Positions 6,292 through 59,823 of a stretch of 64,000 bases of DNA are shown here, piece by piece. This stretch comes from Candidatus Latescibacterota bacterium. GTDB lineage: Bacteria; Latescibacterota; UBA2968; UBA8231. Position numbers and translations under genes: made by a program. The stretch covers positions 960,001 to 1,024,000 of the forward strand of contig OZ242005.1 in assembly GCA_965204725.1 (NCBI GenBank), read 5' to 3'. The number at the start of each line of letters is the position of its first letter. The stretch's first letter is position 1. Under the pieces are notes generated by a model. The model searched no databases. It saw nothing but the letters and a program-made list of their open reading frames with translations, and was not told where the DNA came from.

Positions 6292-6307
6292 TGCAAAAGC
6301 CGTGCCA
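6292..6307 (-). promoter_or_regulatory. sigma54 (-24/-12) promoter of hsp20
   Basis: Minus strand TGGCAC-GGCTT-TTGCA matches TGGCAC-N5-TTGC. Confidence 0.75.
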
Positions 6308-34085: not shown

Positions 34086-34856
34086 ATGCGGGTTTCGCGC
34101 CTCCTATCGGCCTTGCTGCTGGCGGCCCCGGTTGCCGCCGAAGAGGTCTTCGTGCCGGCCGGTCCCTTCACCATGGGCATCGACCACCCGCGCGCCACCG
34201 ACGAAAAGCCCCGCCGCCAAGTCTATCTCAGCGCCTTTTCCATCGACCGCTACGAGGTCACCAACGCCCGCTTCGCCGCCTTTGTCGCGGCGACCGGCTA
34301 CCAGACGGAGGCGGAAAAACGCGGGGTGGAAAAGGCCGATGGCATTAGCTGGCGTCAGCCCCACGGCCCCGGCGCGGCGGCCGCTCCAAACCATCCGGTC
34401 GTCTATGTTAGCTGGCGCGATGCCGAGGCGTATTGCGCTTGGCGCGGCGGTCGGCTGCCCACCGAGGCCGAGTGGGAAAAAAGTGCCCGCGGCTCCGATG
34501 GTCGGCTCTGGCCTTGGGGCGCGGCGTTTGCCGCTGGCCGCGCCAATGTTTGGGGCGCGGAAGACGGCTATGCCGGGTTGGCTCCGGTCGGCTCTTTTCC
34601 CGCCGGCGCCAGCCCGTACGGCGCACTCGATCTAGCCGGTAACGTGTGGGAGTGGTGCGCCGACTGGTACGACGCCGACTATTATGCCACAGCACCGACC
34701 CAAGACCCGCAAGGGCCAGCGACTGGCCGCTTCAAGGTCTTGCGCGGCGGCTCGTGGATCAACCGCGGCCCCACGCTGCGGAGCATCAACCGCTTCGAGG
34801 TCCTGCCCGTAGAGCGCAGCCCCTATATCGGTTTCCGCTGCGCTCGCTCTCCATGA
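34086..34856 (+). CDS. FGE-sulfatase (SUMF1/EgtB/PvdO) domain protein, secreted
   Basis: Signal peptide; YEVTN, HPVVYVSW, RLPTEAEWE, GNVWEW, RGGSW, GFRC; lacks the catalytic Cys pair. Confidence 0.88.
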   Translation: MRVSRLLSALLLAAPVAAEEVFVPAGPFTMGIDHPRATDEKPRRQVYLSAFSIDRYEVTNARFAAFVAATGYQTEAEKRGVEKADGISWRQPHGPGAAAAPNHPVVYVSWRDAEAYCAWRGGRLPTEAEWEKSARGSDGRLWPWGAAFAAGRANVWGAEDGYAGLAPVGSFPAGASPYGALDLAGNVWEWCADWYDADYYATAPTQDPQGPATGRFKVLRGGSWINRGPTLRSINRFEVLPVERSPYIGFRCARSP

Positions 34857-36511
34857 CCCTGCTCATCGCGCTCTGGGCCGCACTTTTAGCGGCCTGCGAC
34901 GCGCCGACTCCCTCGCCGGCCCCCCCGCGCTTTGCCGAAGTGACCAAAGCCGCGGGACTTCACTTTGAGATGCGTTCCGGCGGGCAGGTCAAAAACTATA
35001 TCGTTGAAGCCAAGGGCGGCGGGGGCGCGTTTTTCGACTACGATGGCGACGGTTGGCTCGACATCTACTTGGTCAACGGCTCGCGGTTGGAAGGCTATCC
35101 CGACTCGACCTCGGCCCCGACTAACGCCCTCTACCGCAACTTGGGCGACGGCACCTTTAAGGACTATACCCGCTCAGCCGGGGTTGGCGATGCGGGTTGG
35201 GGCATGGGCTGCGCGGTGGCCGATTACGACCGGGACGGCGACCTCGACCTCTACGTGACCAATTACGGCCCCAACGTCCTGTACCGGAACGAGGGCACGG
35301 GCCGGTTCCGCGACGTCGGTCAGACCGCCGGCGTCGATCTAGCGGGCTGGAGCACCGGGGCTAGCTTCGGCGATTACGACCGGGACGGTGATCTCGACCT
35401 CTACGTGGCCCAGTACTTGGACTTTGCGCCCGAGCGCGTTCCGCCCCGGGGCGGAATGTGGAAGGGGGTTCTGGTCTTTGCTGGCCCATCCGGCCTCCCC
35501 GGGGCTCAAGACGTCCTGTACCGGAACGAGGGCGATGGCCGATTCCGCGACGTCACGCGCCAAGCCGGGGTCGATCAACCGACGCCGACCTACGGCCTGA
35601 GCGTCCTTTTTTGCGATTACGACCAAGACGGCGACTCAGACCTCTACGTCGCCAATGACTCGGCCCCCAATTTTCTCTATCGGAACGAAGGAAACGGCCA
35701 ATTCCGCGACGTCGGCGTGGAAGCTGGCGCCGCTCTCAGTGCCGAGGGTGGGGCGCAAGCGGGCATGGGCATCGCGTATGGGGACTGCGATGGCGATGGC
35801 GACAGCGACCTTTTGGTCACCCACTTTGAGGACGACTACAACACCCTGTACCGCAATCGCAGCGACGGGACCTTTGCCGTGGCCAGTGCTGCGGCCGGCC
35901 TCGCCGAGCCGAGCCTGCCCCACTTGGCCTTTGGCGCGTGTTTTTTCGATTACGACAACGACCAAGACCAAGACCTCTTCGTCGCCAACGGCCACGTCTA
36001 TCCCCAAATGCGACACCTGAACCCAGACGGGTACGCCGAACCCAACCAGCTTTTTGCCAATCAGGGCTTGGCCGCTGACTACCGCTTCGCGGAAGTGGTC
36101 GCCGGGGATATAAGCCGCCCGGCCGTCAGCCGCGGCGTCGCCCAAGGGGACTATGACAACGATGGAGATGTAGATCTTTTGGTCTGCAACCTCGACGGAC
36201 CGCCGCAACTGTTGCGCAACGACGGCGGCAACCAGCGCAACTATCTGAGCCTGCTGTTGGTCGGTACTGCGTCCAATCGCGATGGCATTGGGGCGCGGGT
36301 TTCCGCCGTCAGTGGCGGGGTCGAACAGGTCGTCGAGCGGGTCAGTGGCGGCAGCTTTCTCTCGCACAGCGACGGGCGCATCCACTTGGGCTTGGGCGCG
36401 AACACCATGGCCGAGCGCGTTGAAATCCACTGGCCTTCGGGCCGCGTCCAGCGCTTAGAGGACGTGGCCGCGAATCAGTTTTTGGTGGTAGAAGAACCGG
36501 GGCCGTACTGA
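34853..36511 (+). CDS. CRTAC1-family FG-GAP + ASPIC/UnbV lipoprotein
   Basis: LLAAC lipobox; repeated DYDxDGxxDLYV; C-terminal SNRDGIGARV...HLGLG...WPSG. Confidence 0.88.
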   Translation: MTLLIALWAALLAACDAPTPSPAPPRFAEVTKAAGLHFEMRSGGQVKNYIVEAKGGGGAFFDYDGDGWLDIYLVNGSRLEGYPDSTSAPTNALYRNLGDGTFKDYTRSAGVGDAGWGMGCAVADYDRDGDLDLYVTNYGPNVLYRNEGTGRFRDVGQTAGVDLAGWSTGASFGDYDRDGDLDLYVAQYLDFAPERVPPRGGMWKGVLVFAGPSGLPGAQDVLYRNEGDGRFRDVTRQAGVDQPTPTYGLSVLFCDYDQDGDSDLYVANDSAPNFLYRNEGNGQFRDVGVEAGAALSAEGGAQAGMGIAYGDCDGDGDSDLLVTHFEDDYNTLYRNRSDGTFAVASAAAGLAEPSLPHLAFGACFFDYDNDQDQDLFVANGHVYPQMRHLNPDGYAEPNQLFANQGLAADYRFAEVVAGDISRPAVSRGVAQGDYDNDGDVDLLVCNLDGPPQLLRNDGGNQRNYLSLLLVGTASNRDGIGARVSAVSGGVEQVVERVSGGSFLSHSDGRIHLGLGANTMAERVEIHWPSGRVQRLEDVAANQFLVVEEPGPY

Positions 36512-38002: not shown

Positions 38003-38100
38003 TAGCCATCCTAAATGACTTGAAAGCATGGAATTTTGCCTACGAGGAGTCATTCCCGCGAACGCGGGAATCCAGTCTTGAGTGATGTATGGTTGCTATA
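38001..38100 (+). mobile_element. MITE family B copy abutting the IS630 right end
   Basis: TATAGCCATCCTAAAT...GATGTATGGTTGCTATA ends with TA borders; internal GTCATTCCCGCGAACGCGGGAATCCAG palindrome. Confidence 0.8.
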
Positions 38101-38127
38101 TCTATAACTTAAGCCGGGTGGTGAAAC

Positions 38128-40236
38128 TCACGGCAACTTCGTCGTCTTTTTCGCTTCTACCTGTCCGTCGATTTCGACCTGATAGAGATACACGCCGGCG
38201 GCCACGTCTTTGCCCGTCTCGTCGCGGCCATCCCATATCAACCGATGGCTGCCGGCCCCCAGCGGCCCCTGCCACACCTGACGCACTCGACGACCCAACA
38301 CGTCGTACACCGTCAGCGACACGCGCTCCGTGTCCTCGGCCAAATCAAGGGGCAGCACCACCGCCGGATTGAACGGATTGGGATAGCTGTCGCCCAGCCG
38401 ATGCTGCGCCGGCAGGGCTGCCGCTAGCGTCCGTACCGCTGTTAGCGGACCGCCCTGCAAACTCTTGAGCAGATGCACTCCGCCCAAGACCGGATCCAAC
38501 ACCACCAAATCGACATCGCCGTCGCCATCAACATCGCCCGGCAGCACCTGTACCCCATCGCCCGCTAAGCGATGCGTTTCCACTGCTTCTGTTGGGTTCA
38601 CGCCCCCGCCCCATTCGACGAACACCCCAAAGCCCGAAGCGCGATCGCCGCCGACAAACGCCCAATCCTCGACCCCATCGGCATTCAAGTCGCGCACCAC
38701 TACCGGCGAGCGCAAAAACAGCCGCTCATCATACAACACCTCCGCCTCCACATCGCCTCCGGGTCGGCTACGCCGTACAACCAGTCCCTTGCGTTGTTCG
38801 GTCCCGTCGTAGCGCAGGGCCGTCAGCAGCTCTATCTGCCCATCGTCATCCACATCGTTCCCATATAAAAAAAGAGGCCAACCACCCGACTCAAAAGCCA
38901 ATGGCTCGCCCGCTAGAGACGCTTCCCCCAAGCGAGTCACCTGCCATGAGTACGCGTCGCCGAAGACCGACATCCATAGACCCTCCAACATCCCGTTGCC
39001 GGTAAGGTCGCCGATCTGATAGAGGTAGAGGGGGCCGTTTTCAGGTTTCGCCAATCGCGAGGACGACCACACCCCATTTGCTACATCCCATACTTCAAAA
39101 TAGGACTCGCCGTCCGTTGGATATCCGTTTGCATCGTATTCGAGTGCTGTGGAAAAAAGTTCGACATCGCCGTCGCCATCCCAATCCGCTAGGCCCTTAA
39201 ATAAACGGTCTCTCATCTGCACGAGCTCCTCGATCGCAAGGGCTGATCCCATAGACACAACTGCTATGTCAAGCCAGCCAGCCAGCACAATCTCGTCTTG
39301 GCCGTCGCCGGTCAAATCGCCTGCGTGTATCCCTGATAAGGCTTCCGAGACCGGCATCTCCTCTGTGAGCACGGGCTTAAAGGACCCCTCACCGTCGTTG
39401 CGGGCCACAACCCAACCGGAGATAGGCCACTTCCCCGGTGGGGTATCCTCCCAAGCAGAGAAAAGGTCTAGGTCGCCATCGCCGTCCAAGTCCGTTAAAA
39501 CGCTAGCCCTATCGAAGACGAAGATCCCCCCTAAACCCGGCACAATAGGAAGAAAGACCGGCGGAGCAAAGTACTGGCCCCCTGCAAAGCGAAAGTACTC
39601 GGCTTGAGGCGGCGGTAGTTCTCCCTGTATGATCTCTTCCACGCCGGTCAACTCAATCCAGTCAATCGCCAAGCTGCCAACTTTTTCCGCCGCAGGCCGG
39701 GGCATTCCTGTTTCACTTCGATCCAAGGAAAAACTCAGCCGAATATCCCGTACCATCCCATCCCACAGAGCCTTGCGATGACTGGCAAGGTCAATTTCTA
39801 CTTCTTGCCACTCGGTCGTATAAACGAAGTCGCCTTGTACGAGAATCCCAAACCGACCTTTCGATGGCTCAGGATCCCTACCGGGAGAAGTACGGTTGTG
39901 TTCATTCGTCCAGCGGAGGGCTAAGGAACCCAAAGTAGGACTGTGATGTGCGATCCGAAATCGGACTCGGACCCGGTCGAAAAGGCGCGAATCGTAGTCT
40001 ATCGTCGGAGAGATCACTTCGACACTCGGATTGTGGTCATCGGAGCGAAAGGTCTCGATCTCCCACACGCTGTCTTTGACCACACTGGACAATAGGTGAA
40101 AGGCATGTCGGCCACCGGATGCGAGACTCTTTTTAGCAGCCCACCCTTGCGTCGTCTCTCCGTCGAAATCCCACCGGATCGCCTCGGCCGGGCTACTCCA
40201 TACCATAAAGCCTGCAACAACAGCGAGTTTCAACAC
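38128..40236 (-). CDS. Secreted CBM-like + FG-GAP repeat + FlgD/T9SS-like C-terminal domain protein (paralogue 3)
   Basis: GGAGG + GTG 40236; signal ending AEA; WDFD..GW...IDWIELT; DLDGDGDLDL repeats; SYPNPFNP...WDGRD...GVYLY. Confidence 0.85.
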   Translation of the reverse strand: MLKLAVVAGFMVWSSPAEAIRWDFDGETTQGWAAKKSLASGGRHAFHLLSSVVKDSVWEIETFRSDDHNPSVEVISPTIDYDSRLFDRVRVRFRIAHHSPTLGSLALRWTNEHNRTSPGRDPEPSKGRFGILVQGDFVYTTEWQEVEIDLASHRKALWDGMVRDIRLSFSLDRSETGMPRPAAEKVGSLAIDWIELTGVEEIIQGELPPPQAEYFRFAGGQYFAPPVFLPIVPGLGGIFVFDRASVLTDLDGDGDLDLFSAWEDTPPGKWPISGWVVARNDGEGSFKPVLTEEMPVSEALSGIHAGDLTGDGQDEIVLAGWLDIAVVSMGSALAIEELVQMRDRLFKGLADWDGDGDVELFSTALEYDANGYPTDGESYFEVWDVANGVWSSSRLAKPENGPLYLYQIGDLTGNGMLEGLWMSVFGDAYSWQVTRLGEASLAGEPLAFESGGWPLFLYGNDVDDDGQIELLTALRYDGTEQRKGLVVRRSRPGGDVEAEVLYDERLFLRSPVVVRDLNADGVEDWAFVGGDRASGFGVFVEWGGGVNPTEAVETHRLAGDGVQVLPGDVDGDGDVDLVVLDPVLGGVHLLKSLQGGPLTAVRTLAAALPAQHRLGDSYPNPFNPAVVLPLDLAEDTERVSLTVYDVLGRRVRQVWQGPLGAGSHRLIWDGRDETGKDVAAGVYLYQVEIDGQVEAKKTTKLP

Positions 40237-40298
40237 GATCGTTATACCCTCCCGGCGGTCCCGCAGCGGCGGCCCGAACAACAACATCGGCAAGCGGT

Positions 40299-42488
40299 CT
40301 AAGGCAACTTCGTCGTCTTTTTTGTTTCTATCTGTCCGTCGATTTCGACCCGATAGATGTACACACCGGCGGCCACGTCTTTGCCCGTCTCGTCGCGGCC
40401 ATCCCATATCAACCGATGGCTACCCGTCCCCAGCGGCCCGTCCCACATCTGCCGCACTCGACGACCTAGCACATCGTACACCGTCAGCGACACGCGCTCC
40501 GCGTTCTCGGCTAAATCGAGGGGCAGCACCACCGCCGGATTGAACGGATTGGGATAGCTGTCGCCCAGCCGATGCTGCGCCGGGCGTGTTGCCGTCGGCG
40601 TCAGCACGGCGGTCTGCTGCCCGCTTAGCGGATTCTTGAGCACATGCACGCCCTCTAAAGCCCGATCCAACACCACTAAATCCACATCGCTGTCACCATC
40701 CACATCGCCGGGCAGCACTGCCACGCCATTCCCCTCCAGTCCCGACGGCACATCCCCGGCTTCCAAACGCTCCACACCCGCGCCACTCAAGCGATGCCAT
40801 TCCACCACTCTATTCGGATGCAAGCCACCACCCCAGACGACGAATACGCCAAAACCCAACGCATAATCCCCGCCGATAAATGCCCAATCGTCCAAGCCGT
40901 CGGCATTCAGGTCGCGCACCACCACCGACGAGCGTAGGAACAGATACTCATCATAGAGCACCGTTTTTCTTATTCCATCGGGGCGGCTACTCCACACGGC
41001 CAACCCCTTGCGCTGCTCTTGGAAGTCCTCGCGGAAGCCCGCCAGTAAGTCCACTTGCCCATCGGCGTCGAAATCGCCGGCGCGACCGGCGAGGAGAGAA
41101 AACGGCATGATCTTTTCAAAGAGCACCCCCTGTGTCGGGTCGGCCCCGAAGCCCGTCACGCGAAACGAGATGGCTTGTTCAAACAGCTCCGTCTCCCAAA
41201 AAGCGGGTGGCCCCCACAGCACCTCCAGCACCCCATCGCCCGTAAAGTCGCCGATCTGATGCGCCCACGATAGCTCGGAAGCCGGGGCGGGAACCGGCCA
41301 CTCGGAGAACGTCCACACCCCGTTTACCAAGTCCCACCCCTCCAAAAAAGAGTCGTCCTCGTCCACAGGTTGAGCAAACACTTCCATCTGCCCATCACCA
41401 TCCCAATCGGCTAAACCTACCAATCGACGATTGGGCTTCTGCACGAGTTGCTGCAACTGGAACTCTTCTCCGACAGACCAAACTCCGAGGTCCGACCTTT
41501 CGAGGCTCATCACCATTTCGGCGCGGCCATCGCCGGTCACATCGCCGACAGATAGCCTCGGATAATACGCTGGGTCCTCCAGCGGCTCGACGCGGACGGT
41601 TTCAAACGCTCCTTCTCCGTTGTTGCGCGCTATGACCCAGCCGCCGAGTTGCTCCTCTAACCTCCAGAAGAAGGCGCACAGATCGAGGTCGCCATCGCCA
41701 TCTAAGTCAGTCAAGACCCCTTGTTGGGCGTCGCCTAAGAGACGAAATAAGCCTAAGCCTCGCGCAATCGGGTAGAACACCGGCGGCGCAAAAACCGTAG
41801 GGCCTTCAATGCCTAGGTCGAATACCGGCGGCCGAGGCAATTCGCCCTGTAGCACCTCTTCCACCCCGGTCAACTCAATCCAATCCACTTCCAAAGCCGA
41901 CACCTTCGTCGAAGCCGGCCGGTTAATCATAGACAGGGTCATATCCTCCAAGCCAAACAGCAGGCGAATGTCGTCTAACGGCCCCTCCCATAAGCGCTGA
42001 TACCCGAAGGAACTCTCCTCCATGTCAACCAACGAAAACTCAACCTCCTGCCATTCGGTCGTATATACGAACTCGCCATAGTCCTCGTTTGCCTGAAGAT
42101 AAAATCGCCCCCTCGGTAGAGGGTCACTCCCCGGAAACATGAGGTTGTGTTCATTGGTCCATTGGAGCAGTAAAGCTCCTGTTGTCGGGCTAGGATGGAC
42201 TGTGCGGAACCGCACCCGCACCCGGTCGAAAAGGTGGGAATCATGGCCGATCGTTGGAGAAATCAAGGTGACCCCTGCTCCACTGAGGCCGTCGGTGCGA
42301 AAGGCATTAATCCGCCACACCCCCGCTTCGACCGCCCCAGACAACGGGTGAAATTGATGGTCTCCCCCGGACCGAATAGGTTTCTTGGCCCCCCATCCTT
42401 GCGTCGTCCCGTCGTCGAAATCCCACCGGATCGCCATCGCCGGGCTACCCAACAGCACCATCCCCACACAAATAGAAATGAGCAACAC
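40299..42488 (-). CDS. Secreted CBM-like + FG-GAP repeat + FlgD/T9SS-like C-terminal domain protein (paralogue 2)
   Basis: GGAGG + GTG; signal ending AMA; same domain order as its neighbours. Confidence 0.85.
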   Translation of the reverse strand: MLLISICVGMVLLGSPAMAIRWDFDDGTTQGWGAKKPIRSGGDHQFHPLSGAVEAGVWRINAFRTDGLSGAGVTLISPTIGHDSHLFDRVRVRFRTVHPSPTTGALLLQWTNEHNLMFPGSDPLPRGRFYLQANEDYGEFVYTTEWQEVEFSLVDMEESSFGYQRLWEGPLDDIRLLFGLEDMTLSMINRPASTKVSALEVDWIELTGVEEVLQGELPRPPVFDLGIEGPTVFAPPVFYPIARGLGLFRLLGDAQQGVLTDLDGDGDLDLCAFFWRLEEQLGGWVIARNNGEGAFETVRVEPLEDPAYYPRLSVGDVTGDGRAEMVMSLERSDLGVWSVGEEFQLQQLVQKPNRRLVGLADWDGDGQMEVFAQPVDEDDSFLEGWDLVNGVWTFSEWPVPAPASELSWAHQIGDFTGDGVLEVLWGPPAFWETELFEQAISFRVTGFGADPTQGVLFEKIMPFSLLAGRAGDFDADGQVDLLAGFREDFQEQRKGLAVWSSRPDGIRKTVLYDEYLFLRSSVVVRDLNADGLDDWAFIGGDYALGFGVFVVWGGGLHPNRVVEWHRLSGAGVERLEAGDVPSGLEGNGVAVLPGDVDGDSDVDLVVLDRALEGVHVLKNPLSGQQTAVLTPTATRPAQHRLGDSYPNPFNPAVVLPLDLAENAERVSLTVYDVLGRRVRQMWDGPLGTGSHRLIWDGRDETGKDVAAGVYIYRVEIDGQIETKKTTKLP

Positions 42489-42527
42489 GACAGCACCTCC
42501 TATCCATAATTTGAGTTGGTGTGAAAC

Positions 42528-44663
42528 TCACGGCAGCTTGGTCGTCTTTTTCGCTTCCACCTGTCCGTCGATTTCGACCTGATAGAGATACACGCCGGCG
42601 GCCACGTCTTTACCCGTCTCGTCGCGGCCATCCCATATCAACCGATGGCTGCCCGCCCCCAACGGCCCCTGCCACACCTGACGCACTCGACGACCTAGCA
42701 CATCGTACACCGTCAGCGACACTCGCTCCGCGTCCGTTGCCAAATCAAGGGGCAGCACAACCGTCGGATTGAACGGATTGGGATAGCTGTCACCCAGCCG
42801 ATGCTGCGCCGGGCTCGCTGCTGTCGGCGTCATCACCGCTGTCAGCGGACCGCCCTGCAAACTCTTGAGCAGATGCACTCCGCCCAAAACCGGATCCAAC
42901 ACCACCAAATCGACCGCACCGTCGCCATCGACATCCCCGGGCAGCACCTGGACCCCATCGCCCGCTAAGCGATGCGTTTCCACTGCTTCTGTGGGGTTCA
43001 CACCCCCGCCCCATTCGACGAACACCCCAAAGCCCGAGGCGCGATCCCCGCCGACAAACGCCCAATCCTCGACCCCATCGGCATTCAAGTCGCGCACCAC
43101 CACCGGCGAGCGCAAAAACAGCCGTTCATCATACAGCACCTCCGCCTCCACATCGCCGCCGGGTCGGCTACGCCGCACAACCAGTCCCTTGCGTTGTTCG
43201 GCACCGTCGTAGCGCAGGGCCGTCAGCAGTTCTACTTGCCCATCGGCATCAAAATCGCCCGTGCCCAAAAAAGTAGATGAAGCGAGGCTACGGTCTGCCC
43301 CGAAAGCAAATAGGGTGCCTTCCGCAAACTCACCTCCCAACCGAGACACAACCCATGTATGGGCTTGGCCGACGATGGGGACCCACAGCACGTCCAGCCC
43401 CCCATCGCCCGTAAGATCGCCCACCTGAATGGGCACATGATCCTCCGGGAGAGCCGCCAACCGCGAAGCGGTCCATACGCCACCTGCTACATCCCAGACC
43501 TCGAAATAGGACTCGCCGGCCACGGAATAACCTTCTGCATTGTAGGAGACCGCAGAAACGTCCGTGGAAAAGAGTTCGACATCGCCGTCGCCGTCCCAAT
43601 CCGCCAAGTTTACGAACTCGCGGTTAGGTATCTCCGTCATCACCTCGATCTGGCGGTCCGGCCCCATAGACCAAACCGCTACCTGACTGTTTATAGCCAA
43701 CGCGAGCTCGGAGGTGCCATCGCCGGTTATATCGCCTAGATCCACCTTGAGATAAGCAGGTTCTCCCACCGCTTCAGTCCATGCGGTTTCAAAGACCCCT
43801 TCGCCGTTGTTGAGGGCCATGACCCAACCAGAGGTGTACAAATTCCGTGGTGGGAGGTGCTGCCAAATAGAGAAAAGGTCTAAATCGCCATCGCGGTCCA
43901 AGTCCGTCAATACACCCGCCCGCTCGTTTCCGAGAACCAACCTAGCTCCTGTGCCCGGCACAATGGGATGGAAAACGGGTGACGCAAAGTGCCGACCCCT
44001 GTCAAAGCGAAAATAGTCGGCTTGGGGAGGCGGTAATTCCCCCTGTAGCTTCTCCTCTACGCCGGTCAACTCGATCCAGTCGATCGCCAAGCGGCCTACC
44101 TTTTCCTCGGCCGGACGCGGCACTCCTATTTCGCCCTGATCCAAGTAAAAATTCAGCCGAATATCCCGTAACGCACCGGCCCAGATAATCTCATCGTGGT
44201 CCACAATGGGGATTTCTACTTCTTGCCACTCGGTCGTGTAAACAAAGTCGCGGGGGCCGGGGATCAAAAAGCGTCTTTGTTTAGGCCATTCAGGATCATG
44301 ACCCGGCAGCGTGAGGTTGTGTTCATTGGTCCATTTGACGTTGAAAAAACCTAACGTAGGGCTGTGATGGACGGTGCGGAACCGCACGCGCACCCGGTCG
44401 AACAGAGCCGAATCGTAGCCCAAGGTGGGAGCAATCACTTCGACACTCGGATTGTGGTCATCGGAGCGAAAGGTCTCGATCACCCACACGCCCTCTGCAA
44501 CCACCCCAGACAATAGGTGGAACTCGTGAAAGCCACCCGATGAGGCGGCCTTTTTCGCAGCCCACCCTTGCGTCGTCTCTCCGTCGAAATCCCAAGTGAC
44601 TGCCGCCGCAGGACTACTCCATAGCACAATGCCTACAACAATGGAGCACTTCAACTTCAACAT
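42528..44663 (-). CDS. Secreted CBM-like + FG-GAP repeat + FlgD/T9SS-like C-terminal domain protein (paralogue 1)
   Basis: ATG 44663, MLKLKCSIVVGIVLWSSPAAA signal; same domain order. Confidence 0.85.
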   Translation of the reverse strand: MLKLKCSIVVGIVLWSSPAAAVTWDFDGETTQGWAAKKAASSGGFHEFHLLSGVVAEGVWVIETFRSDDHNPSVEVIAPTLGYDSALFDRVRVRFRTVHHSPTLGFFNVKWTNEHNLTLPGHDPEWPKQRRFLIPGPRDFVYTTEWQEVEIPIVDHDEIIWAGALRDIRLNFYLDQGEIGVPRPAEEKVGRLAIDWIELTGVEEKLQGELPPPQADYFRFDRGRHFASPVFHPIVPGTGARLVLGNERAGVLTDLDRDGDLDLFSIWQHLPPRNLYTSGWVMALNNGEGVFETAWTEAVGEPAYLKVDLGDITGDGTSELALAINSQVAVWSMGPDRQIEVMTEIPNREFVNLADWDGDGDVELFSTDVSAVSYNAEGYSVAGESYFEVWDVAGGVWTASRLAALPEDHVPIQVGDLTGDGGLDVLWVPIVGQAHTWVVSRLGGEFAEGTLFAFGADRSLASSTFLGTGDFDADGQVELLTALRYDGAEQRKGLVVRRSRPGGDVEAEVLYDERLFLRSPVVVRDLNADGVEDWAFVGGDRASGFGVFVEWGGGVNPTEAVETHRLAGDGVQVLPGDVDGDGAVDLVVLDPVLGGVHLLKSLQGGPLTAVMTPTAASPAQHRLGDSYPNPFNPTVVLPLDLATDAERVSLTVYDVLGRRVRQVWQGPLGAGSHRLIWDGRDETGKDVAAGVYLYQVEIDGQVEAKKTTKLP

Positions 44664-44705
44664 GACTAGTAACCTTCTCAGGAGATATACGATACAGTAA
44701 AACGA

Positions 44706-44745
44706 CAAGGGAGCGGTACGAGAATTGCGCCACACCGCTCCCTTG
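44706..44745 (-). promoter_or_regulatory. Intercistronic stem-loop between the peptide gene and the FG-GAP genes
   Basis: 12-bp perfect inverted repeat CAAGGGAGCGGT/ACCGCTCCCTTG with 16-nt loop. Confidence 0.7.
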
Positions 44746-44807
44746 ATAAGCTAAAAGGCAAATGCGCCCTGTGTTGCACCTCTATGCTCAATAGCTATAC
44801 AGGATCT

Positions 44808-45077
44808 TCAAAGGGTACAAACCCAGTTTACATATATACGACTACAGTCCGAACGTTGATGAACCAACCAGCAGCCGATCGGCTTGTCAACCGGGCAGTC
44901 CGGGTCGTAAGTGCAGCCAACATATCGAGGTCCCGATGTGCAGCCGGCTTCGGCCTCCTTGCCTCCGAGCAGGACTGCGATCCACGTGAGGGCGCTGATG
45001 ACCCAACCGAGGGCCAGCCCCTGCCGAGCCGGCACCAAGCCGCTCGACGACATGAAGAATTCCCTCAAGCTCTGCAT
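44808..45077 (-). CDS. Small secreted six-cysteine peptide (89 aa precursor)
   Basis: AGGAG RBS 8 nt before ATG; hydrophobic leader ending AEA; 45-aa tail with 6 Cys; lies downstream of a consensus sigma54 promoter. Confidence 0.72.
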   Translation of the reverse strand: MQSLREFFMSSSGLVPARQGLALGWVISALTWIAVLLGGKEAEAGCTSGPRYVGCTYDPDCPVDKPIGCWLVHQRSDCSRIYVNWVCTL

Positions 45078-45214
45078 GATCTCTTCTCCTAAGTTGCCCA
45101 GTACGCCAGCGGCCCGATACCACTACGCGACTGGAAGTGAGGTTGAAAAATGACCGATACGAATTCGTATCTCCTCCTTTCTGTTCTATCGGCCTCGTTT
45201 CTACGGATTATATA

Positions 45215-45230
45215 TGCAAATTTCGTGCCA
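45215..45230 (-). promoter_or_regulatory. sigma54 (-24/-12) promoter of the peptide/FG-GAP operon
   Basis: Minus strand TGGCAC-GAAAT-TTGCA. Confidence 0.75.
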
Positions 45231-45353
45231 AAAAGCAGGACACGTACAAAAAAATCCTTTAGGATTACCCTAAAGGATTGAAAAACATAGAAGTTATAAA
45301 ATCGTGATTTTCTTCTTATAGGATCTATGGGTTCAATAGAACATATAAAATTC

Positions 45354-45417
45354 GTTCAAAAGTTGTTCAAAAGTTGTTGAGAATGAACAGATTTTGAACA
45401 GATTTTGAACAACTTTT
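45354..45417. repeat. Inverted pair of 11-bp tandem repeat arrays (candidate enhancer)
   Basis: GTTCAAAAGTT x2, then GAACAGATTTT x2 + GAACAACTTTT. Confidence 0.75.
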
Positions 45418-45744
45418 CATCCACGGCGCGGACACCGGGTAGGCACGCAGTCCACGCGCTGTACGAGGACATTTTGCGTTAGGGCTGCTTGGGAAGCCCT
45501 CGGCCAAGCATGTCAACGCCGCCGACCGGCGCACCAGTGCGGTTGCGCGCCACGAGCCCCACATCGTACCCGGCGGCCAAAATTTTGCACTCGCGGCGAA
45601 AGATGCAGTTGTCAAAGGGGTTGTAGAAGGAGGTGAACTAGGCGCGGCTAATCCCATCAGCACACGCGACGCCCGGTTGCATAAATGACGAAAATTTAAT
45701 AAGATAAGATACGTTTTAACACTGTTTTCTACCGCCGGATTCCC

Positions 45745-57923: not shown

Positions 57924-58053
57924 ATCGAGCTAGGCCGATTGCATTCTTTTAGGGTGTCGGTTACTCTAGCAAACACCTGTGTATCAACCTTTCACATTGC
58001 AGGGCTTGAAGGAAAGAGTATGACGAAGAAGTACACCATAGGGTGCAAATTGT

Positions 58054-59823
58054 ATGCCAACGTCTCCTAGCGCGATCTGGCGACTGGGGGTCGGCGCGTT
58101 GCTGTGGGCCGCCTGCGGGCCGGAAGAGCCTTCGGCACCGGTGCCCGCGCCCGAGTACGCCAAAGCACCGTCGGCCGAATACGCGGTGGGGCGCGGGCGG
58201 AAAGAGGCCCCGGCCGTGCGCTTCGTGGATGTGACGCAGGAGGCGGGTCTTGAATTTGAGCACGAGACCGGGGCGCGCGGCGACAAGTGGATGCCAGAAA
58301 CCATGGGCAGCGGCTGCGCGCTCTTCGACTACGATGGGGACGGCTGGCTCGACGTGTTCTTGGTCAACAGCGAAGGCTGGCGCGGCGAAAAGACCCCCGG
58401 CAAGCTCTACCGCAACCTCGGCAACGGCACCTTTGCCGACGCAACGGCCCGCACGGGCCTAGACTTTTCAGTCTATGGCATGGGCGCGACGATTGCCGAC
58501 TACGACGCCGATGACGACCCGGATATATACCTGACGACCTTGGGGCCGAACTTGCTCTTGCGCAACGACGCGGGTCGCTTTGTCGATGTGGCGCGGGAAG
58601 CGGGCGTGGCCGGCGCGGTCTGGCGCGACGACGCCGGTCACGAGAGTCCCGAGTGGTCAACGGGCGCGGCTTGGGTGGATGTGGATGGAGATGGCTGGCT
58701 GGATTTGTTGGTCACCAACTACGTGCGCTGGTCGCCCAGCACCGACATATACACCACGCTCGACGGCAGGGAAAAGTCCTACGCCACGCCCCAGCAGTAC
58801 CCCGGCTCAACGCCCCGGCTCTATCGGAATCTGGGCGAGGGCCGCTTCCGGGAGATAACCCAAGAAGCGGGCCTGCTGTTGCCCGAAGGCAAGTCCATGG
58901 GCGTAGCCATGACCGACTTTGATGACGACGGCCGCATCGACTTGGTCGTCACCAACGACACCCAGCCCAATTTCCTATTGCACAACTTAGGTGGGGGCCG
59001 CTTTGCGGAGCGGGGGCTCGCCGCGGGCATTGGCTACGACGAAACCGGCCGGGCGCGTGCTGGGATGGGCGTAGATATTGCCTCGGTTGCCAACGACGGC
59101 GTGCTTTCCATCGCCATTGGCAACTTCAGCCGCGAGGCGCTCTCGCTCTACAGCCAAGCCGGCGGCGCGGTCTTCGTCGATGCTGCGGGCCGAGCGCGGC
59201 TGATGCAGGCGACGCTGCGGCCGCTGACCTTTGGGCTGCGCTTTTTCGACTGCGATCTCGACGGCTATCAGGACCTAATCTTGGCCAATGGACACATCGA
59301 GCCAGAAATCAACTCGACGCAGAAGGAAATCGAGTACCAGCAGACGCCGCAGTTGTTTTGGAACGATGGCGACGGGCGGATGGTCGAGGTGTCCGAGCAG
59401 GCGGGCGGACTGTTCCGCAAGCCGCTGGTGGCGCGCGGGCTGGCGGTCGGCGATATCGACGCCGACCACGACTTGGATGTGCTGCTGACGACCAATGGCG
59501 GTCCGGCCTATCTATTGCGCAACGAAGGGCCGACCGGCCGCGCGGTGGCACTCGACCTGACGGGCAAGGCGCCCAACCGAGACGCCATCGGCGCCAAGGT
59601 GACCGCGCAGGTGGGCGAGCAGACGCAGGTCTTTATGGTGCGCACGGGGTCTTCCTATCTGAGCCACAGCCCTGCTACGCTGACCGTTGGCTTGGGCGAG
59701 GCCGAGCAGATTGACCGCTTGGAGATTCGCTGGCCGGATGGGACGGTGGAAACCCTTGAACAGCTCGCGGCTGGGACGCGCTACGCAATCGCGCAGGGTG
59801 CGGGCATTGTGGAGGCTGAGTAG
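58054..59823 (+). CDS. CRTAC1-family FG-GAP + ASPIC/UnbV lipoprotein
   Basis: LWAAC lipobox; ETMGSG, DYDGDGWLD repeats; NRDAIGAKV...GLG...RWPDG. Confidence 0.88.
   Translation: MPTSPSAIWRLGVGALLWAACGPEEPSAPVPAPEYAKAPSAEYAVGRGRKEAPAVRFVDVTQEAGLEFEHETGARGDKWMPETMGSGCALFDYDGDGWLDVFLVNSEGWRGEKTPGKLYRNLGNGTFADATARTGLDFSVYGMGATIADYDADDDPDIYLTTLGPNLLLRNDAGRFVDVAREAGVAGAVWRDDAGHESPEWSTGAAWVDVDGDGWLDLLVTNYVRWSPSTDIYTTLDGREKSYATPQQYPGSTPRLYRNLGEGRFREITQEAGLLLPEGKSMGVAMTDFDDDGRIDLVVTNDTQPNFLLHNLGGGRFAERGLAAGIGYDETGRARAGMGVDIASVANDGVLSIAIGNFSREALSLYSQAGGAVFVDAAGRARLMQATLRPLTFGLRFFDCDLDGYQDLILANGHIEPEINSTQKEIEYQQTPQLFWNDGDGRMVEVSEQAGGLFRKPLVARGLAVGDIDADHDLDVLLTTNGGPAYLLRNEGPTGRAVALDLTGKAPNRDAIGAKVTAQVGEQTQVFMVRTGSSYLSHSPATLTVGLGEAEQIDRLEIRWPDGTVETLEQLAAGTRYAIAQGAGIVEAE

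Follow-up and report, generated by a model that had tools for sequence, protein, structure and literature searches.

Several described systems share individual parts with the locus analysed here, a gene unit on the minus strand of a 64,000-nucleotide (nt) stretch of a Candidatus Latescibacterota genome (contig OZ242005.1; the whole stretch is called the window), in which a sigma54-type promoter precedes a small gene for a cysteine-rich peptide and three tandem genes for FG-GAP propeller proteins. The first are proteins with a class III signal that A24 prepilin peptidases process, such as the type IV pilins and the sugar-binding proteins of the Sulfolobus bindosome, as described in PMC4471445. 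The peptide resembles these proteins in its leader, whose 20 residues end in Gly ahead of a stretch of about 20 hydrophobic ones, in a conserved N-terminus ahead of a variable, disulfide-bonded beta head, and in the linkage of an A24 peptidase gene to the genes of its substrates. Unlike type IV pilins, the peptide system has no match to an assembly ATPase or platform protein, carries Trp in place of Glu5 and an AxA motif past the helix, and has a head of just about 45 residues with 6-10 Cys. Some of its members additionally bear a sorting domain of the type IX secretion system (T9SS), and the gene partner of the peptide encodes a T9SS propeller protein. A second relative is the type A cargo of the T9SS in Bacteroidota/FCB. 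The three paralogues and the fused proteins with Cys modules end in such a sorting domain, and SprA is encoded in the genome. Unlike known T9SS cargo, the cargo gene here comes after a small partner gene, the product of which has no sorting domain and is predicted to dock on the cargo. We know of no two-part T9SS cargo of this kind, and our literature searches found none with a separately encoded partner.

Disulfide-bonded peptides with thiol-disulfide oxidoreductases of their own are exemplified by sublancin with BdbA/BdbB, and MauD is an accessory protein of methylamine dehydrogenase. Similar to these systems, genes for Cys-rich products are accompanied here by dedicated membrane-anchored thioredoxin-fold proteins with CxxC motifs. 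The peptidase, however, is of the A24 type and not of the C39 type or another bacteriocin leader peptidase. For regulation, the closest example is the PEP-CTERM/PrsR system with sigma54 as controller of the cell exterior, as far as the accessible parts of PMC1569441 and PMC3162934 describe it: a promoter with an upstream activator site drives surface genes in both cases, and in the peptide system, too, the activator gene is often adjacent. Unlike in that description, the activator here has a cytoplasmic Reg_prop/Y_Y_Y sensor and no receiver domain, and the promoter module contains a conserved hairpin and a conserved leader of 135 nt. Literature searches, with supplementary files outside their reach, returned no description of the full layout in print, in agreement with an earlier reading of this DNA from the sequence alone (the sequence-only reading), which knew of no such system. 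In the part of a paper on sponge Latescibacterota that was accessible to a term search (PMC12993501), there is no mention of FG-GAP, T9SS or bacteriocins.

In our interpretation, the window carries one unit of a lineage-specific cell-surface system that belongs mainly to one sponge-associated genus of Latescibacterota. The best explanation as a whole is a sigma54-controlled, two-part surface unit that is matured by a dedicated gene cassette and exported by the T9SS, and we give this explanation a probability of roughly 0.5. The system appears to be real and undescribed. The sequence-only reading, a secreted disulfide-bonded peptide with cognate receptor, immunity or display proteins, is supported in part; all features that it listed are present, each of them on the minus strand and in the stated place or close to it. 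In coordinates of the window, the unit consists of the following features:

45347-45417 (-): repeat array, candidate upstream activator site, two imperfect inverted arms of 32 nt each (45347-45378 and 45386-45417) made up of 11-nt tandem units
45253-45279 (-): inverted repeat of two perfect 11-bp arms (45253-45263 and 45269-45279), with a T run after it
45215-45230 (-): sigma54-type promoter TGGCAC-N5-TTGCA, present as TGGCACGAAATTTGCA, an exact match to the consensus TGGCAC-N5-TTGCW with its -24 GG and -12 GC elements
45078-45214 (-): predicted 5' leader of the mRNA, about 135 nt, from alignments across loci
44808-45077 (-): small open reading frame (ORF) of 89 amino acids, with AGGAG 9-13 nt before the ATG
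45018-45077 (-): precursor codons 1-20, hydrophilic leader LREFFxSSSGLxPARQG, ending in the invariant Gly20
44946-45017 (-): precursor codons 21-44, hydrophobic helix LALGWVISALTWIAVLLGG, then KEAEA with the conserved AxA
44808-44945 (-): precursor codons 45-89 and stop, predicted six-Cys mature domain, from the AlphaFold2 (AF2) model and the Cys framework of the family
44706-44745 (-): intergenic stem-loop, perfect 12-bp stem of 44706-44717 and 44734-44745
42528-44663 (-): FG-GAP1, with putative signal peptide, family-specific N-terminal beta domain, FG-GAP beta-propeller and T9SS type A sorting domain
40299-42488 (-): FG-GAP2, paralogue of like architecture, with FG-GAP_3 and FlgD_ig matches
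38128-40236 (-): FG-GAP3, paralogue with FG-GAP_3 and FlgD_ig matches

The three paralogues have about 700 residues each and follow one another in tandem with a period of about 2.2 kb; the gaps among the genes measure 39-62 nt. FG-GAP1 likely starts at 44663 (MLKLKC...), which places the stem-loop between the genes, and FG-GAP3 likely starts at the GTG at 40236 with GGGAGG upstream. An upstream extension of the peptide frame, which is open in several relatives, was rejected: by eye, a stop lies 16 codons upstream in the window, and we take the ATG at 45077 as the start.

The precursor family and its partner genes

Judged by its conservation, the small ORF with its ribosome-binding site, proposed as a gene from the sequence alone, is indeed a gene, and it belongs to a conserved family. 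This family comprises 80 clusters in a large protein collection, none of them named or with a Pfam domain, and a profile search yielded 67 matches among 1.84 billion representatives. The peptide itself has no match in Pfam or NCBIfam. All 28 peptide loci found in species-representative genomes are located in Latescibacterota metagenome-assembled genomes. Among 151 sampled genomes of the phylum, 19 contain the family, and 15 of these, including the window's own genome, fall within the window's genus. The own genome (5.43 Mb, 60% GC, 94% complete) contains five additional small peptide copies and four longer forms that share the leader. A single genome can carry up to 12 peptide matches and up to 21 matches of the N-terminal domain of the FG-GAP family, and peptide genes can stand in tandem (three in L057, two each in L032 and L034).

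The two halves of the precursor behave very differently. Residues 1-44 are nearly invariant in the family (LREFFxSSSGLxPARQGLxLGWVIS...LLGAKEAEA), and Gly20 is invariant in 49 aligned sequences. The tail varies but holds a framework of 6-10 Cys, with recognisable classes that are common to several species. Synonymous codon identity is 0.67 in the leader versus 0.72 in the conserved sorting domain. Since synonymous sites vary, the constraint acts on the protein, and conservation at the nucleotide level or gene conversion could be ruled out as the origin of the conserved leader. A lipobox was also rejected, as the leader has Glu at -3 and most relatives, by eye, lack Cys at the corresponding place.

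Fused members of the family bear on the destination of the Cys-rich part. In these proteins of 225-330 residues, the leader is combined with a T9SS sorting domain and with Cys modules, two or three in tandem, between which SE(A/D)EQ-like linkers are located. They show that the Cys module is an exported, surface-directed domain. Maturation in the cytoplasm, as for ribosomally synthesized and post-translationally modified peptides, is unlikely because the fused forms are T9SS cargo. The membrane-spanning stretch held in the leader likewise argues for export before maturation.

The peptide gene is found nearly unchanged in metagenome contigs of two runs, of 413 and 412 nt, with 0 and 2 differences. 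The DNA runs that match the stretch are labelled sponge or marine metagenome, and there was no matching RNA run among the 23 runs returned.

The linkage between the peptide gene and the FG-GAP genes is tight. In 25 of 27 non-duplicate loci, the gene directly after the index peptide gene belongs to the FG-GAP family, with L008 and L018 as the exceptions, and the two genes adjoin with short gaps. Six units of the own genome begin in this way, with a small peptide gene ahead of one of the FG-GAP family. The FG-GAP N-terminal domain is present in 27 of the 151 genomes, 17 of which also have the peptide. In the closest relative (L008, 10260-10480), the peptide gene is 93% identical with an altered C-terminus, and behind it come what is left of a second promoter module and an unrelated gene. 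The FG-GAP genes of this locus appear to have been deleted via recombination between modules.

Other genes recur around these units. In the peptide-less genomes G122, G132 and G124 (loci L039, L043 and L047, respectively), proteins of about 650-750 residues are interleaved with the FG-GAP genes. They contain a thioredoxin-like stretch that matches a 234-residue thioredoxin, described below, with 33-39 bits, and there is no small peptide gene in these loci. Recurrent neighbours of the units in general are a DUF4159 protein (about 445-470 residues), an F5/8 type C protein with T9SS domain (551 residues), a TPR protein (401 residues), a WD40 protein (365 residues) and proteins of 810-899 residues without family. 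They are located in L029, in L019 and at C1:2169239-2170648, 2187674-2189011 and 4882861-4884243 of the own genome.

The propeller proteins and the predicted complex

Each of the three paralogues matches FG-GAP_3 (E 8.9e-18 to 1.3e-23) and has a C-terminal domain of the FlgD_ig type above cut-off. FG-GAP1 also passes the model of the T9SS type A sorting domain (TIGR04183, 30.5 bits, cut-off 23), whereas the Pfam model Por_Secre_tail stays below its cut-off in the paralogues (19.3-21.1 vs 27). The architecture of propeller and C-terminal domain that was proposed for the three proteins is thereby borne out. SprA (TIGR04189) is found in the own genome with 485 bits, or 612 together with a same-frame neighbour. 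A putative N-terminal Sec signal of the FG-GAP proteins was read by eye, e.g. MLKLKCSIVVGIVLWSSPAAA.

The AF2 model of FG-GAP1 (predicted local distance difference test, pLDDT, 77.7; predicted template modelling score, pTM, 0.76) consists of a beta-rich N-terminal domain, a propeller and a less confident C-terminal domain, with repeated four-strand units at residues 230-600. The best Foldseek matches of the model are galactose oxidase (E 1.4e-10), sialidases, CRTAC1 and the integrin alpha5 headpiece. In line with these matches, the FG-GAP_3 repeats with their DxDxDG loops are shared with the propellers of integrin alpha, CRTAC1/ASPIC, galactose oxidase and sialidases. The matches are weak, with TM-scores of 0.3-0.36 over the whole model and sequence identities of 10-14%, and, unlike in integrin alpha, CRTAC1 and galactose oxidase, the N-terminal domain has no Pfam family. 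That the N-terminal domain is like a carbohydrate-binding module is suggested only by the AF2 model with its best Foldseek matches to galactose oxidase and sialidases. The diversification of the propellers is supported by the comparison of the paralogues given below; the C-terminal 230 residues of FG-GAP3 are 96-97% identical to those of FG-GAP1.

For the peptide, the AF2 model contains a helix at residues 24-41 and strands at 49-57, 67-74 and 80-88, with pLDDT 84-89 over residues 50-89. The mature domain is thus predicted to be a three-stranded beta mini-protein. No solved fold matches this model at Z >=5. A weak likeness to laterosporulin3 (VIA-align Z 3.0, root-mean-square deviation 4.7 over 43 aligned residues) is within noise, and archaeal pilins appear among the weak matches at Z 2.0-2.1. 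A search of the ESM Atlas yielded only two unnamed clusters at 0.85-0.86, a lead at most.

We folded residues 21-605 of FG-GAP1 together with residues 45-89 of the peptide in three runs and with three controls. The predicted complex reaches an interface score (ipSAE) of 0.78 (runs 0.79, 0.78 and 0.78), while the best of the three controls reaches 0.00. The runs have at least 76% of their contacts in common, and partner pLDDT is at least 77. Of 80 solved complexes, 58 attain the ipSAE mark, compared with 2 out of 110 pairs that were mismatched, a calibration that is rough here since own alignments were used. Contacts are made by loops distributed over the entire propeller (residues 241-490) and by residues 38-46, 70-73, 106, 126-127 and 173 of the N-terminal domain. 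The model thus places the peptide on a single propeller face, where it abuts the N-terminal domain.

The contact residues are the most variable positions of the FG-GAP family. The 50 contact residues have a mean entropy of 2.37 bits versus 1.18 bits for the other 535 (Mann-Whitney p 1e-13). At these 50 positions, FG-GAP2 is 26% identical to FG-GAP1, compared with 54% elsewhere, and for FG-GAP3 the corresponding values are 36% and 71%. The mature peptide is thus predicted to dock on the variable face of the adjacent propeller.

The maturation cassette and the sigma54 promoter module

The window itself contains no modifying enzyme, as noted in the sequence-only reading. This holds for the window but not for the system, since a cassette with an A24 peptidase, thioredoxins and an FMN-binding-like protein is present elsewhere in the own genome and stands beside peptide genes in other lineages. 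In the own genome, it is located at C1:4874328-4877349 under the same type of promoter. The largest cluster of this genome has the order activator, promoter module, 381-residue polytopic protein, 218-residue protein (p218), 196-residue protein, 234-residue protein, peptide gene and FG-GAP gene. The 381-residue protein and its orthologues match Peptidase_A24 (PF01478) with 26.9, 27.4, 30.0 and 31.1 bits at a cut-off of 26.5. They carry YTDIxxRxIP and GxGDAKL, which we take to be the motifs holding the A24 catalytic Asp residues, and some relatives are publicly named A24 family or prepilin peptidase. The 381-residue protein is the single A24 match in the own genome. CSAC and CPYC motifs are present in the 196- and 234-residue proteins, which have AhpC-TSA/Redoxin folds and are anchored in the membrane. 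They resemble ResA and MauD weakly but are not members of these families, as their scores of 40-48 bits are far under the cut-offs of 170-189. For p218, there is an SGAT motif and a weak match to FMN_bind/RnfG.

Within the genus, the four-gene cassette of p218, A24 peptidase and two thioredoxins is intact in 10 of 11 A24-bearing loci. Eight further loci come from other genera and families (L050-L057). Here the thioredoxin genes are present in all eight and p218 in seven. In L050, L051, L056 and L057, the A24 gene directly adjoins the peptide gene, and in L052, L053 and L054 the two are separated by no more than about 3.5 kb; no A24 gene is in range in L055. Overall, 16 of the 19 peptide-positive genomes have an A24 gene. 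The own genome has no match to the T2SSE ATPase (PF00437) or the T2SSF platform (PF00482), and T2SSE does not exceed its cut-off in 9 of 10 peptide- and A24-positive genomes of the family sample.

The leader combines features of two types of signal. According to PMC4471445, a class III signal is a hydrophilic leader of 6-26 residues that ends in Gly and is followed by about 21 hydrophobic residues, usually with Glu5 and without class I cleavage residues past the hydrophobic tract; Glu5 is often absent in archaea. The peptide leader, with 20 residues up to the invariant Gly20 and the hydrophobic stretch thereafter, fits this layout. Distant relatives have Gly or Ala at this position. The residue five past Gly20 is a nearly invariant Trp and not Glu. 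The 44-residue leader ending in AEA, as originally delimited, has a conserved AxA, but it is not a plain Sec signal, as it has the prepilin-type (class III) layout as well. By its layout, the leader is thus a hybrid, with a candidate A24 site on the cytoplasmic side, for which Gly20 is the candidate residue, and a signal-peptidase-I-like site on the outer side. For the Cys domain to leave the membrane, the helix has to be removed, as must happen in the fused forms. From the gene neighbourhoods, we infer that the A24 peptidase and the thioredoxin helpers probably mature the peptide.

A different arrangement is observed in two of the distant loci. In L056 and L057, the cassette and one to three peptide genes adjoin a permease of 775-776 residues with MacB_PCD/FtsX domains (Pfam), and L050 contains a similar 831-residue ORF, judged by its N-terminus only. 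In L056, an ApbE flavin transferase gene also adjoins, and no FG-GAP family gene was found nearby. The layout of L050, L056 and L057, which belong to the families f2 and f3, may be the more ancestral one, in which export relied on a pump.

Control by sigma54 was proposed from the exact consensus match upstream of the peptide gene. By itself, the motif is within chance in the window, where five matches with at most one mismatch compare with 2.56 +/- 1.73 in shuffled sequence and 12 of 100 shuffles reach five. Its weight comes from a position that is conserved across loci and not from the window count: in 35 of 55 leader-bearing ORFs, the ATG is preceded at a distance of 120-162 nt by a motif that agrees with the consensus in at least 9 of its 11 positions. 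The remaining 20 are internal to a unit, come second in a tandem pair or are fused forms. The own genome encodes RpoN (Sigma54_DBD, 199.9 bits). The entire upstream region can be aligned across loci in the order repeat array, AT-rich spacer, inverted repeat with T run, promoter and leader of about 135 nt, and this architecture is found at six places in the own genome. The sixth of these modules stands directly before a 667-residue protein with a sigma54-activator C-terminus (C1:4637702-4639852), possibly a self-regulated activator.

The inverted repeat lies about 22 nt upstream of the -24 element and is nearly identical in sequence across loci. It is a candidate for a terminator-like insulator or for a protein-bending site. 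In L014, a different GC-rich hairpin with a T run takes its place, which favours the terminator-like insulator. A site resembling that of the integration host factor, with one mismatch by eye, is possible there as well. A search of the repeat array and the inverted repeat against Rfam gave only sub-threshold look-alikes of microRNA and PyrR families.

The 5' leader of about 135 nt is conserved in sequence across species (L009-L035) and may be a regulatory leader. It contains an internal Shine-Dalgarno-like GAAAGGAGG, the palindrome GATACGAAyTCGTATC and two weakly supported stems. No Rfam family reaches its gathering score in this leader. We propose no structured RNA here, as the consensus fold of 18 leaders with 19 pairs contains just one compensatory change.

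An activator of about 1050 residues with Reg_prop, Y_Y_Y and Sigma54_activat domains is encoded within 10 kb in 15 of 28 loci, mostly directly upstream. Its C-terminal helix-turn-helix varies together with the repeats: LRSRMR[VH]YGL pairs with TCGTAT-type repeats in five of five cases, and LRYRM[QK]KYGL pairs with CCACG...CGTGG-type repeats in eight of eight. A repeat array of the TTGTTCAAAA type is therefore likely the binding site of a Reg_prop/sigma54 enhancer-binding protein. The TTGTTCAAAA units of the window are most like the TTGTGCAAAA units beside the activator at C1:4870764-4873949, and because of this similarity that activator likely regulates the window operon.

The metagenome reads give a view on the modularity of these units. 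Contigs of four DNA runs over the region are short pieces that break at common modules. Over 38100-45450, contigs of the runs X3, X4, X6 and X12 join the promoter leader straight to an FG-GAP2-like start; in X6 and X12 the joint runs from 42523 to 45188, and depth is highest on the common modules. These joints fit cassette shuffling between units, or paralogous loci of other strains.

A strong hairpin follows most peptide genes. The 12-bp stem-loop reported for the window is present, with -25.5 kcal/mol, a stem that can be extended to 16 pairs with wobble and a TCGTTTT tail. When 50-nt folds of <=-20 kcal/mol were searched within 130 nt of the stop codons of 34 peptide genes, such a hairpin was found after 27, compared with 1 of 34 for the shuffle means, and the mean energy was -24.6 compared with -15.6 for shuffled sequence. 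The sequences of the stems vary between loci. The hairpin is a candidate partial terminator or RNA-stabilising 3' end.

Competing explanations and flanking DNA

The sigma54-controlled, two-part surface unit would work as follows. An enhancer-binding protein with a Reg_prop/Y_Y_Y sensor would bind the repeat array and activate the sigma54 promoter. One transcript would encode the small precursor and three T9SS cargo proteins, and the hairpin past the small gene would probably keep the short transcript in excess. The precursor would enter the inner membrane via its conserved leader and be processed at Gly20 by the sole A24-type aspartyl peptidase, at AEA by signal peptidase I, or at both sites. 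Its six Cys would be oxidised by the two membrane-anchored CxxC thioredoxins working with the FMN-binding-like protein. The resulting beta mini-protein of 45 residues would dock on the variable top face of the propeller encoded by the neighbouring gene, against the N-terminal domain. Lacking a sorting domain, the mini-protein would be carried out of the cell as a passenger on this T9SS cargo, while relatives with their own sorting domain would go alone. The pair would form a polymorphic surface unit for recognition or adhesion.

A number of findings weigh against this explanation. On the side of gene linkage, L008 keeps its peptide gene after the loss of its FG-GAP genes. Ten of the 27 FG-GAP-positive genomes have no peptide match, among them one closed genome with 10 copies, and in peptide-less genomes as well as in some units of the own genome, such as at C1:2184306, a sigma54 promoter directly drives an FG-GAP gene. 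The question raised in the sequence-only reading, whether a short Cys-rich ORF always precedes the FG-GAP family, is thus answered in the negative by these ten genomes. From the existence of peptide-less units we conclude that the pairing is not obligatory and that, as far as gene content tells, the propeller family under sigma54 is the wider module, to which the peptide was added in part of the cases. On the side of processing, only frames of fused length or a fragment were found in the three peptide genomes without A24, and some members of the family can therefore do without this peptidase. In addition, an AxA motif (AEA, AAA, AQA, ADA or AYA) precedes the Cys-rich part even in distant relatives, which argues for ordinary cleavage by signal peptidase.

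On the side of binding, the similarity between peptides correlates with that of the N-terminal domain and variable propeller half of the adjacent FG-GAP protein with r 0.57, versus r 0.16 for the sorting domain, but it is unsafe to call this binding because linked genes share history. At the contact positions, the correlation (r 0.46) does not exceed that of random sets of other positions (0.49 +/- 0.06). Loops on the propeller face are variable in many families, whatever the ligand, and the docking prediction covers a single cognate pair. The proposed role of the FG-GAP proteins as cognate partners therefore gains from the complex with its clean controls and from the hypervariable contacts, but it draws nothing from the correlation at the contacts. 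Finally, we know of no precedent for a passenger that crosses the T9SS bound to cargo.

A more far-reaching version can be put forward tentatively, and we consider it less likely than not. Here, the pilus-free combination of A24 peptidase, extracytoplasmic FMN-binding protein and two thioredoxins would be an undescribed maturation pathway for disulfide-rich mini-proteins. These would have multiplied in one sponge-associated genus of Latescibacterota, each as the hypervariable subunit that plugs its own propeller and is co-exported with it by the T9SS, in a set of polymorphic two-part receptors under sigma54. If the proposed reading of the system holds, an A24 prepilin-type peptidase would have non-filament substrates in genomes without a match to a filament ATPase or platform. 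A diderm bacterium would produce small disulfide-rich proteins by means of a dedicated set of genes for a peptidase, two thioredoxins and a flavin-binding protein, and T9SS cargo would carry a separately encoded passenger. Given the many units, their variation at the predicted contact surface and their occurrence in sponge symbionts, they are candidates for host or kin recognition. Protein engineering could also profit from such a scaffold, which is small, stable, variable and rich in Cys and comes with a matching partner to bind.

The peptide could instead be a secreted antimicrobial or host-directed disulfide-rich toxin, similar to a bacteriocin. The thioredoxins and the peptidase would then mature it, and the FG-GAP proteins would be unrelated but co-regulated, or serve as carrier or immunity proteins. 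A conserved leader with a variable Cys-rich tail, often in several tandem genes, and dedicated thiol-disulfide oxidoreductases are what such a toxin would have. The permease with MacB_PCD/FtsX domains adjoins the peptide genes in L056 and L057, and the L050 ORF, judged by its N-terminus only, is similar, but neither the window nor the genus-level loci contain a permease, an immunity-like small gene or a lysis gene. The fold likeness to laterosporulin3, a defensin-like bacteriocin, is at Z 3.0 within noise. The fused forms place the module on a T9SS-anchored protein, which is a better fit to a surface domain, and the predicted docking gives the FG-GAP protein a direct role. We regard a toxin as unlikely.

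Also improbable is a peptide that binds the propeller in the periplasm only, as a plug or folding helper that closes the ligand site until export and is not exported itself. The predicted docking does cover the propeller face, the peptide gene comes first and is probably expressed in excess through the hairpin, and the peptide has no sorting domain. Fused relatives, however, bring the same module to the outside, and FG-GAP genes without a peptide exist. A helper would moreover be expected to be conserved, yet the peptide is as variable as the surface that it covers.

For pilin-like subunits, we see little probability. A24 would cut after Gly20, the hydrophobic helix would be kept, and the subunits would polymerise into, or anchor, a short filament or membrane-bound array holding the FG-GAP proteins. 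The hydrophilic leader of 20 residues up to the invariant Gly, the roughly 20 hydrophobic residues after it, the dedicated A24 peptidase linked to the peptide genes and the conserved N-terminus with a variable disulfide-bonded beta head all agree with this, as do the archaeal pilins among the weak fold matches (Z 2.0-2.1). The own genome, 94% complete, lacks T2SSE and T2SSF matches, and so do nine of the ten peptide- and A24-positive genomes for T2SSE over cut-off. Trp replaces Glu5, the AxA past the helix is foreign to class III signals, and the fused forms need release from the membrane for their use of the T9SS.

Co-regulation of independent members of one sigma54 regulon, with the docking as a false positive, would account for FG-GAP units without peptide and peptides without FG-GAP genes, for two families (f2 and f3) that have peptide and cassette without a match to the FG-GAP N-terminal domain, for the lack of extra correlation at the contact positions and, given that 2 of 110 mismatched pairs reached the ipSAE mark, for the score, but it is very unlikely in view of adjacent genes with short gaps in 25 of 27 loci, an ipSAE of 0.78 in three agreeing runs against three controls at 0.00, and contacts that fall on the most variable residues.

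Downstream, the unit borders on DNA of a different kind. About 60 nt past the stop of FG-GAP3, a GC-rich 9-bp hairpin, ATTCCCGCG-TT-CGCGGGAAT, is located at 38046-38066 (-) without a T run; it is possibly the end of the transcript or an element resembling repetitive extragenic palindromes. Directly downstream of FG-GAP3, the segment 36514-37987 contains a 290-residue fragment whose match to the specificity domain of a Type ISP restriction enzyme is confined to the C-terminal part of that domain, together with short ORFs that, by eye, resemble pieces of DDE transposases. This segment is probably decayed mobile DNA that marks the end of the unit. Beyond it, 34646-36511 (+) encodes a separate FG-GAP/ASPIC-UnbV protein with seven FG-GAP_3 stretches and without a T9SS domain, whose family differs from that of the three FG-GAP paralogues. 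Elsewhere in the window, a second exact sigma54 consensus (TGGCACGGCTTTTGCA) is located at 6292-6307 (-) and a site with one mismatch at 58044-58059 (-).

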